The notes: generated from the letters alone by a model not told the origin. 64,000 bases of DNA from Escherichia coli (GCF_046105845.1 NZ_CP151004.1), one strand, 5' to 3'; shown: positions 6,784 to 15,533, numbered from the stretch's first letter. Made by a program: numbers and translations.

Positions 6784-7359
6784 CTACGGCAGTGCTGGCC
6801 ATTCAATATCCTGTGCAGTTGACGTATCAACACGGTTCAGCAATACCCGATACTTTTTCCATGCTTCCAGCAACGAGATTTCTTCCTCCGTTGCAATTTC
6901 CAGATCTGCAGCATCCTGAAGCGGCGCAATATGCTCACTGGCTACCTGCATCAGGCTGTTTTTTGTTTCTTCCGCCTCCCGGATCCGGAACAGTTTTTCT
7001 GCTTCTGCATCTTTCACCCAGGCTGTGCCGTTCCACTTCTGAAACTCCCCTTCCGGCGATAACCAGGTAACATTTTCCGGTAACGGACCGAGTTCAGAAA
7101 TAAATAACGCGTCCCCTGACGCTACGTCATAAACCGTTTTACCCCGATGGTCTTCAACGAGATGCCACGATGCCTCATCACTGTTGAAAACAGCCACGAA
7201 GCCTGCCGGAATATCTGGCGGTGCAATATCGGTACTGTTTGCTGGCAGACCTGTATGAGGCGGAATATATGCGTCACCTTCACCAATAAATTCATTAGTT
7301 CCGGCCAGCAGATTATAAATTTTTATGGTCCGTGGTTGTTCACTCATTCTGAATGCCAT
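6784..7359 (-). CDS. tail fibre assembly protein
   Basis: 191 aa; Tfa-like sequence ending DIEWPALP; directly downstream of stf. Confidence 0.85.
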
Positions 7360-10300
7360 TATGCAAGCCTCACAATGTAGTTAAATGCGATGTTTTTGAC
7401 GGTGTTTTCCGCGTTACCAGCAGCGTTAACGGTGATAGTGTGTCCATGTGAGCCAATCGCAACAGAGTGCGTATGAGCACCAATACCGACAGTATGTGCG
7501 TGAGCACCTGCAGATGCGGCTGTGCCGCTAACACTATGAGTGTGCGCTCCTGCAGCACTTGTATTCACACTGGCCGCAGACACTACCTTATGTACTGACC
7601 CATTTTGTGACCACTGGCTGACTGCTGATGCGCCTGTGACACTATGAGTATGGTTTCCGGCACTTGCGGCTGTACCGCTCACACTGTGCGTATGCGCCCC
7701 GGTGTTATTCGTGGATTTAGTGCCGTAATCAAACGACGATGTGGTTTTCGTCCCCAAATCCGTACTGGATGCGCTGGCGCTGTGGGTGTGCGATTTAATG
7801 CCGTCCTGTTCCTGAGACAATACGGCCCGACCACTGGCAGGTTTGCCCTTAATCGTCCAGCTACGCATATCAGGGATCACGCCTGACGGATAAGCGGCTG
7901 CAAGTTTCGGGTATGCAGATTTGTCAAAAGTCTGCCCCTGCATCAGGGCATAACCAGACGGAACGGTATCTGATGGCCACGGGATTGGTGCGCCGACTGG
8001 GTAGCTTTCTGGTGGAAGATTTTTCGAGGTATAAACTTCTGCCCAGTCTTCCTCAAAACCATAGCCATCTCTTGAGGAACGGTAGAACAGACCTCCATTT
8101 CTGTAATGCGCCTTCATCTGCAGGGTCCGGCAACTTCCGACTCCGGTATAGAAGTTAACCAGAATATAGCTGTCGCCAGAGCGGGTGACATTGTAAGCGC
8201 CTGATTCGGCATTCCATGGAACGCCCCCATCCGCATCGGCATACGTATCCGTTGCTCTTCTGGCAAAAGCAGCCACATGCGCGGCGGTTAAAGTAATATC
8301 TTTGGAACCATCAAACTCAACACCAGAAACCCGTCTTGGCGTTTGCAGCTTTGTTGCTGTTAATGCATTACCGTTCAGACTTGCGGACAGTTTGGTTCCA
8401 ATAACCAGCTCGCCGGTTGCGTTATCAATAGCAAACGGTCTTAATGTATTCCAGCCACCATAAACATCACCTTGATTGGTAAGCAGCAGGTAAGTTTTAG
8501 CGCCATCATTACGCCATAATGCACCATACTCCCCACCTATCATTCGAATCTGATTACCACCACGCGCTACAATTTCGTCTGTGGCAAAAAGTTTTTTGCA
8601 CGACAAGTTATCGTTAACGATTAACGAATGAGACTCATAAAAACCACGCCCACTCTTAAAATCAAGGATAACGTCCGCCGCGATACATTCAGTCGCTGGA
8701 TTTGTTGCCCCAAACTTATAGGTCGTATCATTAACAACGAGATCAGCACCAGGTGCGGATATTGACAGGCCATCTTCGATAAACGCAAAAACAGGGAAAG
8801 CAGCGCCATCAACATAGAACACAGAGCGCAAATCATCGCCCTTATTACTCATCATTATTGAGTGGATGGCTCGTTCATTGTTTTGATATTGCCAGAACAT
8901 TCCATAAGCATAACGCCCCCTGTCAGTCCAGCCACCAGGCATAACAAATCCGTTAAACTCGCAGTTATTCATCGGATCGCCTGCGGTTCGCGTTGCCGTG
9001 GTGATAATGACCCTTGATGCCAGTTCGCTTACTGAGCCAGCAGAACGCATAACAACAACAGGGTAATATTTTCCAGATGTTGCACCTGCAGGAGCGTTAA
9101 CCCGCACATAACGCATACCACGCTTATCAGCAAAGTCTGTTTTACTGACCGCGTTAATGTTGTTCAGGAAGCGTCCCTTATCGGGTATATCAGCGCCGTT
9201 CTGGTCTTTCTGCAGACGTTTCTCTGCATTGTCATAGGCTGATTTTACTGCCTTTGGCGTTGCCGCCAGCGTTTCAGACGTACTGTTGGTCGCACTGCTG
9301 AGCTGTACTATCCCCTTTTTCGTCGTGCTCGCATCCTCAAGCGCCACGGCGGATGCAATATCCTCTGCCCGTTTTGCCGCTGTCTCAGCGCGCGTTGCTG
9401 CAGATTCCGCCGTACTTTTGCTCTGAGCTGCTGCCGTCGCACTACCAGCAGCCTCTGTCGCCTTCGTGGATGCCGTCGTGGCGCTGCCCTTCGCTGCTGA
9501 CGCCTGTCTGGTCGCCTCATCTTTTGAAGCAGACGCCGATGAGGCCGATGACGCCGCCGAACTGGCGGACGATGCCGCTGCCGTTTTTGAGGATTCTGCA
9601 CGGGTTTCCGACGCTTTCGCGTTCGTTTCGGATGTCTTCGCTGCGGAAGCTGACCTCGCTGCTGCCGTGGCCTGCTCAGTGGCTTCGCCAGCCTTCGTTG
9701 TGGCTGTTGAAGCGGATGATGCGGCGCTTTCTGCCGATTTTCCGGCGGCGGTGGCACTGACTGAGGCCTGCCCGGCACTTGTTGACGCGGCACTGGCAGA
9801 CGACGCAGCCGCTGTTTTTGAGCCTGCCGCAGCTGAGGCGCTCTGTCCCGCTGCCGTCTCAGAAGACCTGGCGTTCGTCTCGGACGTTTTTGCCGCCTTC
9901 GCGGAATTTCCTGCCGCCGTTGCCGAGGAAGCTGCGCTGCTGGCGCTCGAGGCTGCGTTCGTTTCTGATGATTTTGCCGCCTCTTTTGAAGCCGACGCAT
10001 CCCGTGCTGAAGTGGCTGCTTCTGACGCTTTCGTGGTCGCGGTGGATGCAGAAGTGGCTGCTGATTGTTGTGACGCTGCCGCATTCGTTTCTGACGTTTT
10101 CGCCGCACCGGCACTGGTAGCCGCCGCGCTTTTTGAGGACTCTGCAGCGGCAGCACTTTTTGATGCTTCAGTGGCCTTTGCTGATGCCGTTCCTGCGCTG
10201 GAAGACGCTGACTGAGCCGACGACGCGGCCTGTCCGGCTGACGTGCTGGCTGCGCGTGCTGAGCCTGCAGCATCAGTCGCATGGGTTGCCGCCTCACGGG

Positions 10301-10712
10301 CTGATGTGCTGGCATTGCTGGCTGACTTCTTCGCGGCTGCTGTGTTCTGTGCCACCGCGGACGCGTTACGCGCCACCTCTTCCACCATCAGTTCAAAACG
10401 TCGCAGTGCCTCCGGACGGGTATCATCCTCCGTCATGGCACCGAGAAAATCATTCAGCGTACCGGGTTGAGAATCTTCATACACGGTGATGGTCCCGGCA
10501 TGTGACGGCGGGAATCCCTCCACCAACAGAATAACGCTGTACTGACCGTACTCAACGTCCATACTGTAACGCCCGGCTTCATCCGGATTTTCTGAGGCCA
10601 GCGTGTTCACCACCACAGTGGTACTGTTACGTTTTGCTTTCAGCTGGATTGTGCAGTTCTGTACCGGTTTTCCTGTGCCGTCTTTCAGTACACCTGAAAT
10701 CTTTACTGCCAT
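7359..10712 (-). CDS. side tail fibre protein, StfR-like
   Basis: [28 protein letters not shown]-terminus, long Ala/Ser/Thr-rich central region, C-terminus HTHS repeats and [11 protein letters not shown]. Confidence 0.85.
9300..10370 (-). repeat. low-complexity Ala/Ser/Thr-rich coding repeats inside stf
   Basis: Reiterated [14 protein letters not shown] peptide units in the translation; produces artefactual long ORFs in the other frames. Confidence 0.7.
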
Positions 10713-10776
10713 ATTCACCCCACAAAAAAGCCCGCCTGAACCGGCGGGCTGTCATAACACTGTGTTACCTGGCTAA

Positions 10777-11376
10777 TCAGAATTTATAACCGACACCCAC
10801 GATGAAACCGTCAGTGCGCCAGTCACCACTGCCGGAGCCTTCATAAGCAATATCAATGGCCACGGATTCGGTCGGGTTAAACTGCACGCCAGCCCCCCAC
10901 GCCAGAGACGTGTTGCTGTGGCGACCGTCATCACTTCCGGTCAGCACATCGTGCGTTTTCCCCTTGTTGTCAGTTACGCGGAGATAATCCCCGGAGAAAG
11001 TCGACACACGGCTGTAAGCCACACCCGCCATCGCATACGCGCTGAACCATTCATTCACGCGTACAGACGGCCCCGCCATCACGCTGAACCAGCGGTTACG
11101 CACTGAATCTTCATGCCAGCGGGTATCGCTGTAACGGGTAAGCTGGCGATTCTTGTCTCCTGCATAGCTGAATGACGTCACCAGCCCCAGTGTGTCCGTA
11201 AACTCATAACGGTATTTCACGTTAATCCCGTTCAGATCATCGCTGCCGGAAACGTTCGTCGAGGCATGAAGATAGCCCGCGCTCAGCGTGGACTGATGTT
11301 CAGACGCCCATGCAGGCGCACCGGATACGGCCAGACAGATGGCTGCGGACAAAATGGTGGCATAAAGTTTACGCAT
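10777..11376 (-). CDS. lom: Lom/Ail/PagC-family outer-membrane beta-barrel protein
   Basis: Signal peptide [24 protein letters not shown], ends GYKF; lambda-like position between J and stf. Confidence 0.85.
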
Positions 11377-11442: not shown

Positions 11443-15203
<3,761 letters not shown>

Positions 15204-15232
<29 letters not shown>

Positions 15233-15533
15233 AACGCACACCTCCGGAAATACCTTCCCCAAGATGCATCAGTTCTTCGTCCGTTCGCTCCGGTATCCCG
15301 TTCTCTTCCGGTAAAAGGCTGAAATCAGCCACCGCAGCATCACTGCTACCGGACACCATTCTCACGATCAATGCCTTCAGCGAGGCAAACTGCGCATCCA
15401 TCCACACATCACTGAAGCTCTGCATCCGGAAATAATCGCCCCACTCACCAAGCTCAGTGGCCGACATTTCCGACAGCATCCGCCGCCAGTCTGCCCGTCG
15501 GAACTCCCGGGCAAGCCGCATGACAAACTGCAT
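15204..15533 (-). CDS. tail assembly chaperone T-like frame (expected as a G-T fusion)
   Basis: -1 frame ORF overlapping the end of the G-like gene, lambda G/T arrangement. Confidence 0.6.

Follow-up and report, generated by a model that had tools for sequence, protein, structure and literature searches.

Among the closest described systems to the locus analyzed here is the side tail fibre protein gpStf of phage Ur-lambda, which was studied in 2025 by cryo-EM, cryo-ET, and AlphaFold3 (PMC12617516). The four fibres share one collar made of twelve N-domains, and the N-terminal collar domain docks the fibre on the junction between tail tube and tip. It is followed by a linker (residues 92–101) and, from residue 102 on, by a coiled coil. 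[quoted passage not shown] In the lambda fibre, a straight proximal rod and a defined hinge are visible, and the model of its shaft is an AlphaFold3 prediction fitted to low-resolution tomograms (PMC12617516). Furthermore, residues 1–393 of lambda Stf fused to gpH of phage P2 yield functional fibres (PMC11338833). Entries in the PDB cover only residues 1–94 of lambda Stf, and the shaft is without a solved structure.

A more distant likeness exists to the N-terminal rod of T7 gp17 and to T5 pb1, which also have a helical rod lying between the domain for attachment to the tail and the part that binds the receptor. However, these fibres attach via a different domain and have no long Ala/Ser heptad array at the sequence level, and their sequence matches to the array described below were non-significant (E 0.07).

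Gene organization and relationship to lambda and Rac

The window, a stretch of 64,000 nucleotides (64 kb) of Escherichia coli DNA, contains a prophage in which most tail genes have been lost. The side tail fibre gene, an stf/stfR homologue of the Stf/StfR family, is located at 7359..10712 on the minus strand and codes for 1117 amino acids from an ATG at position 10712. The mechanically called ORF (7359..10718, minus strand) is two codons longer and begins with a GTG at 10718. The gene product is 100% identical to the RefSeq CDS WP_021530826.1 of E. coli O145 RM9872, whose start corresponds to the ATG at 10712, and the 1651 nt surrounding the repeat array (positions 9100–10750) are 100% identical to the prophage of this strain. 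Directly upstream of stf lies a lom-like gene for an outer membrane protein (10777..11376, minus strand; Pfam Ail_Lom, E 3.7e-119), and the analysis of the neighbouring genes also revealed a C-terminal remnant of gpJ (11443..11742). Directly downstream, a tfa-like gene for a tail fibre assembly chaperone was found (6784..7359, minus strand; Pfam Caudo_TAP, E 2.1e-43). Given the lost tail genes, the stf copy in the window may never be assembled.

In the Pfam scan of the stf product, the domain phage_tail_N (PF08400, E 2.8e-71) covers residues 3–136, and Gp34_trimer, Collar (E 3.7e-11), and Phage_fiber repeats (E 2.2e-5) are also present. The N-terminal collar domain (aa 1–94; 10431..10712, minus strand) matches the lambda gpStf N-domain chains 9e7m/9mgh with an E value of 1.3e-52, and AF2 predicts a beta-sandwich for residues 2–77. 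It is followed by a linker and hydrophobic neck helix (aa 95–115; 10368..10430, minus strand), which is helical from residue 99 in the AF2 model and shares its heptad register with the adjoining array (aa 116–465; 9318..10367, minus strand). The junction behind the array (aa 466–516; 9165..9317, minus strand) is a conserved tail-fibre repeat common to Mu/P2-type fibres, which matches chains 8ju3/5yvq of the Mu tail fibre protein S (E 1e-16 to 1e-17) and has tblastn matches in P2/186/Mu-like phages. In the tblastn search against phages the array was masked as low complexity, so that coordinates alone were used and the coverage figures are meaningless. The distal receptor-binding part extends over 7419..8726 on the minus strand, in coordinates converted from a 1119-aa numbering. 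It comprises, all assigned by Pfam on the same strand, a Gp34_trimer-like domain (8427–8726), a Collar domain (7854–7994), and His-rich Phage_fiber repeats (about 7419–7709).

When the N-terminal 126 residues alone served as protein query, nearly all matches were truncated proteins of 110–220 aa labelled 'partial', of no use for comparing lengths, which shows that assemblies often break near the array.

The gene order is shared with lambda, being J-lom-orf401 in the latter and lom-stf-tfa in the window. Full-length lambda Stf has a length of 774 aa. A global alignment shows the stf product to be colinear with orf-401 of lambda, which comprises the N-terminal part of Stf, except for one net block of 105 aa. 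Both proteins have the N-terminal collar domain in common, their DNA being about 87% identical in the 904 nt of the N-terminal part that they share, and in both a heptad array leads to the same junction motif. The lambda array consists of 35 heptads compared to 50 in the window, which corresponds to 15 heptads or about 15.5 nm more rod here. Past the junction the two differ, since the 1117-aa product continues with the Gp34_trimer-like and Collar domains and the His-rich repeats. The DNA alignment places the ends of the lambda indel only approximately, as SKTAAA-like heptads occur there in both forms and the sequences share only about 85% identity, and no clear microhomology could be called.

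StfR of the Rac prophage of E. coli K-12 bears the same RefSeq product name and is 96.2% identical over 1651 nt, with 94.8% in the array, and without indels, so that both arrays consist of 50 heptads. Over the compared region the two differ by point substitutions alone. Judged from the Pfam domains, the lom and tfa neighbours, and the 96% identity to the K-12 Rac stfR, the gene is a known lambdoid side tail fibre gene, annotated as StfR type; the original prediction had correctly called it a side tail fibre.

The heptad array, a probable proximal shaft

The array has a length of 1050 nt and encodes 50 heptads in one register with zero breaks. It coincides with the Ala/Ser/Thr coding repeats that had been proposed for positions 9300–10370, and its periodicity is far beyond chance. 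Compared to composition-preserving shuffles, the residue autocorrelation peaks only at lags of 7, 14, and so on up to 56 (z = 7.7–9.9), and at all other lags it does not exceed the expectation. A PSSM scan likewise found a single register in the array. No second array of this kind was detected by a position-specific scan in any frame of the 64-kb window.

The consensus heptad is S-A-[T/S]-x-A-x-[T/S]. The presumed core stripe is formed by small and not by large apolar residues, with alanine in 47 of the 50 heptads in column 5, serine in 37 in column 1, and alanine in 35 in column 2, the latter being occupied by lysine or glutamate in 12 heptads. On both sides the array is flanked by hydrophobic helices (IASAVAL on the distal side), which continue its heptad register and carry Leu, Phe, Val, or Ile in the columns where the array has its conserved alanines.

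The array has a predicted helix propensity. In the AF2 model of the monomer, helices comprise residues 99–238, 243–364, and 399–457, with a pLDDT of about 72–80 over most of their length. The shaft is bent back into hairpins in this model, the turns having low confidence (mean pLDDT 61), and the model is usable for secondary structure only. Such a fold-back is expected, because one chain of an oligomeric rod was modelled alone.

Periodicity, predicted helices, and homology to lambda Stf make it very probable that the segment forms the shaft, a proximal alpha-helical coiled coil, of a side tail fibre of the lambdoid type. Against this reading count the core of Ala and Ser, which is weakly hydrophobic for a coiled coil, the Lys or Glu in column 2 of 12 heptads, the low-resolution tomograms behind the shaft model of lambda, and the seven of 33 relatives whose lengths are not multiples of seven. 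By analogy with the Ur-lambda fibre, the rod would be thin and consist of three chains wound around one another, the N-terminal collar domain attaching each of them to the tail; its 50 heptads would turn a stripe of small residues (Ser-Ala ... Ala) inwards. Both the trimer and the function as a rod are carried over from the Ur-lambda study. We further infer a spacer role, in which the shaft would keep the hinge and the distal receptor-binding part about 52 nm away from the tail tip (350 residues × 0.148 nm). At the same rise of 0.148 nm per residue, the array of lambda with its 35 heptads would be about 36 nm long. The number of heptads would set the length of the rod, and evolutionary changes in length are rare block indels which nearly always keep the register.

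Shaft length and distal parts in relatives

The 5426 complete E. coli genomes contain 16,313 stf-like places, and in 3600 of these genomes a copy covering at least 80% of the array is present. From the 4246 E. coli records matching the array, an evenly spaced sample of 60 was taken, and all 49 copies with full coverage in it align as single ungapped pieces of exactly 1050 nt, with identities from 100% down to 88.9%. Two fetched copies, with 97.1% and 90.6% nucleotide identity in the array, both have 50 heptads and show no indel. Compared to the 90.6% copy, 73 of the 99 substitutions are located at codon position 3, and 68 codon changes are synonymous versus 23 non-synonymous. By this pattern of codon changes, the stf frame is under purifying selection.

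At the protein level, the shaft length was determined as the distance between an anchor on either side, the distal anchor being the first occurrence of the junction motif after the shaft. Among the 120 closest protein clusters this distance is 350 residues in 115, 322 residues (four heptads fewer) in two, 347 in two, and 353 in one. An apparent length class of 394 residues was false, as in 54 proteins the best local alignment had taken the KGIVQL repeat in its second copy. The register exceptions among the close relatives are gaps of three residues. Coiled coils tolerate three-residue discontinuities. The repeat number of the array is fixed among close relatives.

The wider family, represented by 33 proteins at 50% identity, displays anchor distances of 35, 97, 126, 133, 142, 147, 202, 238, 245, 300, 301, and 350 residues. 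These are multiples of seven in 26 of the 33 proteins (P = 1.6e-16 when the proteins are treated as independent) and for 8 of the 12 distinct lengths (P = 5e-5), whereas seven of the 33 relatives have other distances. Relative to the form with 50 heptads, the shorter forms show block gaps at varied positions (28, 112, 7+105, 105, 224, 70+147, and others), of which 18 of 27 are multiples of seven (P = 8e-10), as taken from automatic pairwise alignments whose positions are approximate in divergent relatives. Read from these distances and gaps, the length variants, ranging from 5 to 50 heptads in the wider family, are real and represent rare, old block indels, mostly of whole heptads and with the register kept.

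The original prediction had called for a comparison of the repeat number across relatives and had considered variants in fibre length possible. The comparison yielded 1050 nt in 49 of 49 copies and an equal length in 115 of 120 clusters. Variation in fibre length thus holds only on a long evolutionary scale, with 35 heptads in lambda and 5 to 50 in the family.

Rod length in steps of whole heptads (5 to 50 heptads, about 5–52 nm) could be an adaptive, tunable trait, or the Ala/Ser array could represent a distinct class of unusually thin trimeric coiled coils; both ideas are possible but rather doubtful. If the length is tunable, it could match the thickness of the O-antigen or capsule that the distal tip has to cross. 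A literature search for prophage tail fibres that vary in heptad number or length yielded nothing specific.

The shaft of 50 heptads is joined to at least five types of distal parts, namely Gp34_trimer plus Collar as in the window, Gp53-like_C, Collar, gp37_trimer, and parts not recognised by Pfam. In a further E. coli copy (L005), the sequence is near-identical for about 24 heptads and then diverges in register; with the register unbroken throughout, its array comprises 33 heptads, which are followed by a different distal part. As one shaft occurs with several distal modules, as L005 changes in register, and as the P2 gpH fusions are functional, the shaft behaves as a conserved adaptor to which recombination joins different receptor-binding modules at the distal end.

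An alternative assumption is that the main selected role of the array is to provide DNA homology for the exchange of distal modules between co-resident prophages, the rod being secondary. Up to 15 matching places per E. coli genome, an identity of 89–100% in the shaft across thousands of genomes with differing distal parts, and the switch of partner inside the array of L005, in register, are all compatible with this assumption. However, selection acts at the protein level, as seen from the predominance of synonymous changes and the conserved heptad columns, and the N-terminal domain would supply homology too. A role in exchange would moreover complement the structural explanation and would not replace it, and as the main role it is improbable. 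The coiled-coil shaft is hence retained as the preferred reading.

Composition, nucleotide sequence, and other-frame ORFs

The term repeat applies to the array at the protein level and not to its DNA. Tandem Repeats Finder reported two trivial arrays of 25–30 nt and nothing more, and a repeat search found only short copies that are 60–94% identical, mostly at multiples of 21 nt. Within the 1050 nt, exact direct repeats do not exceed 12 nt. In 200 controls, in which synonymous codons were permuted among identical residues, the longest repeat had a mean length of 13.1 nt and reached or exceeded the observed 12 nt in 157 cases. Identical residues in two heptads use the same codon at a rate expected by chance for essentially all lags, with a slight excess at lags of one to three heptads (z 2–3). 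All six serine codons and all four alanine codons are mixed along the whole array. The repeat is a periodicity of the protein and not a DNA repeat.

Since a DNA-level repeat is missing, there is no substrate for slippage or for homology-dependent unequal crossing-over within the array, and since its DNA is not repetitive, the array is not a mutational hot spot. The claim that it is prone to slippage or recombination is thus not supported, and the constant length of the 49 copies and of 115 of the 120 clusters speaks against it as well. A hypervariable tract, in which slippage or unequal recombination would often change the repeat number and generate heterogeneous fibre lengths in the manner of a contingency locus, is accordingly very unlikely. 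It would account for the length classes from 5 to 50 heptads in the family, for the few close relatives that differ by 28, 3, or 3 residues, and for the small excess of shared synonymous codons between heptads one to three units apart. It does not agree with the controls for the 12-nt repeat, the lack of an array in Tandem Repeats Finder, or the mixture of six Ser and four Ala codons, nor with the stability of the array in the E. coli sample (identity 100–88.9%) and the zero indels in copies differing at 2.9% and 9.4% of the array positions. In addition, the unit is 21 nt long, hence phase-variable frameshifting is impossible. The likeness to phase-variable simple-sequence contingency loci is superficial and rests on the impression of a motif recurring in a gene for surface recognition and on nothing else, whereas the stf array lacks tandem DNA identity, has a unit that is a multiple of three, and shows no polymorphism in repeat number among close relatives.

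The amino acid composition of the array is highly biased, with 131 alanines, 82 serines, and 42 threonines among 348 residues (73% Ala/Ser/Thr), no proline, and 12 glycines. A collagen-like Gly-X-Y fibre repeat was ruled out by the low glycine content (12 of 348) and by the lack of an autocorrelation peak at lag 3. It is also very unlikely that, instead of a coiled coil, the segment forms a Ser/Thr/Ala-rich linker in the manner of a mucin-like stalk, which would be disordered or extended and might be glycosylated: its low complexity, its very few large hydrophobic residues, and the lack of an experimental structure for the array would fit such a linker, but this would give no reason for an exact seven-residue register over 50 units or for length changes in whole heptads, and proline is absent, glycine is rare, AF2 predicts helix, and in the lambda fibre the proximal rod is straight and the hinge is defined (PMC12617516).

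Five other-frame ORFs of 113–335 aa were listed within the array. The longest is a spurious ORF of 335 aa in the +1 frame of stf (9308..10315, minus strand), which is rich in Arg, Gln, and Pro and has no Pfam match. A spurious antisense ORF of 249 aa (9466..10215, plus strand), rich in Ala, Asp, Phe, and Val, has a sole Pfam match below the threshold. The remaining three are located on the plus strand at 9353..9760, 9779..10120, and 10133..10489. The Pfam scan of the other-frame ORFs yielded no credible match.

The open frames can be traced to the codons used. The +1 frame has no stops because the codons for Ala, Thr, and TCN-type Ser carry a C at position 2. In the antisense frame that is aligned with the codons there are 28 stops, just as many as there are TCA codons, and the remaining two antisense frames contain two stops each. 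Furthermore, the other frames differ from the 90.6% copy at 85–88 of about 350 positions (85 in the +1 frame), compared to 32 in the antisense frame that shares the wobble positions of stf. This is the frame of the ORF at 9466..10215, and its apparent conservation is therefore automatic. Its counterpart in lambda is orf206b, which lies antisense inside orf-401 and is still present in the GenBank record. Judged from codon usage, the missing credible Pfam matches, and these 85–88 changes, the other-frame ORFs are by-products of codon composition, in agreement with the original prediction, which had considered them artefactual.

Based on this, the long other-frame ORFs, including the old orf206b of lambda, should not be annotated as genes, and the array should not be flagged as hypervariable, as it is a protein-level periodicity and not a DNA repeat. 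The array is a known, ordinary feature, which corresponds to the proximal coiled coil known from Ur-lambda, and its discovery value is small. The natural gradation of shaft lengths by whole heptads, along with the in-register junctions to different distal modules, may aid the engineering of chimeric lambda side fibres for DNA delivery.

Start and distal junction of the side tail fibre gene

The mechanically called open reading frame of stf begins at a GTG at position 10718, two codons upstream of the ATG at 10712, which is the start in the RefSeq annotation. The lambda protein likewise begins with MAVKISG, and translation probably starts at the ATG at 10712.

Distal to the heptad array, the junction formed by residues 466-516 (9165-9317) resembles the Pfam Phage_fiber_2 repeat and matches structures of the Mu protein S. 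PF03406 is given for near-identical proteins in precomputed annotations; it was absent from the hmmscan output for the stf protein, even at E ≤ 1.

In the lambda reference record J02459, an "orf206b" is annotated at 2004-2624 on the minus strand, antisense within the heptad array of orf-401, the N-terminal part of lambda Stf. It is of the same kind as the open reading frame at 9466..10215 of the window, both being composition-driven.

Loss of tail genes in the prophage

An IS3-family insertion sequence of 1258 bp, whose open reading frames encode HTH_Tnp_1 and rve domains, is located at 11691-12948. It takes the place of approximately 6.3 kb found in the corresponding prophage of the O145 strain RM9872, while the rest is 99.9% identical. 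In the RM9872 prophage, this segment holds most of J together with the genes I, K, L, and M, and reaches into the tape measure gene, covering its 3′ end; all of this is missing from the window. The J remnant (flank 11443-11742) keeps the last 99 amino acids and that of the tape measure protein (flank 12944-15262) the first 772. As both proteins are reduced to remnants, the prophage in the window is tail-defective.

The array in database entries, plasmids and giant proteins

Very many entries of the family (protein matches P0001-P0120) are "partial" proteins, which end 110-220 residues in, near the array start. Up to 15 places per genome match the stf sequence. The partial entries are likely caused by short-read assemblies breaking near the array start, because several prophages of one genome have this sequence in common.

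Tail fibre genes with part of the array (query positions ~1-865, 91-95% identity) were also found on large E. coli plasmids of 110-120 kb (hits H151-H153), which may be phage-plasmids.

Finally, four giant proteins of 2820-3903 amino acids (P0322, P0341, P0352, and P0360) each carry at least 10 short arrays of Ala/Ser heptads similar in type to the stf array, mostly of roughly 20-190 residues, with starts typically ~180-360 residues from one another. The N-terminus of P0341 is gpJ-like (FNIII-A_GpJ, Phage-tail_3), which suggests giant central tail fibres made of repeated shaft-plus-domain modules.
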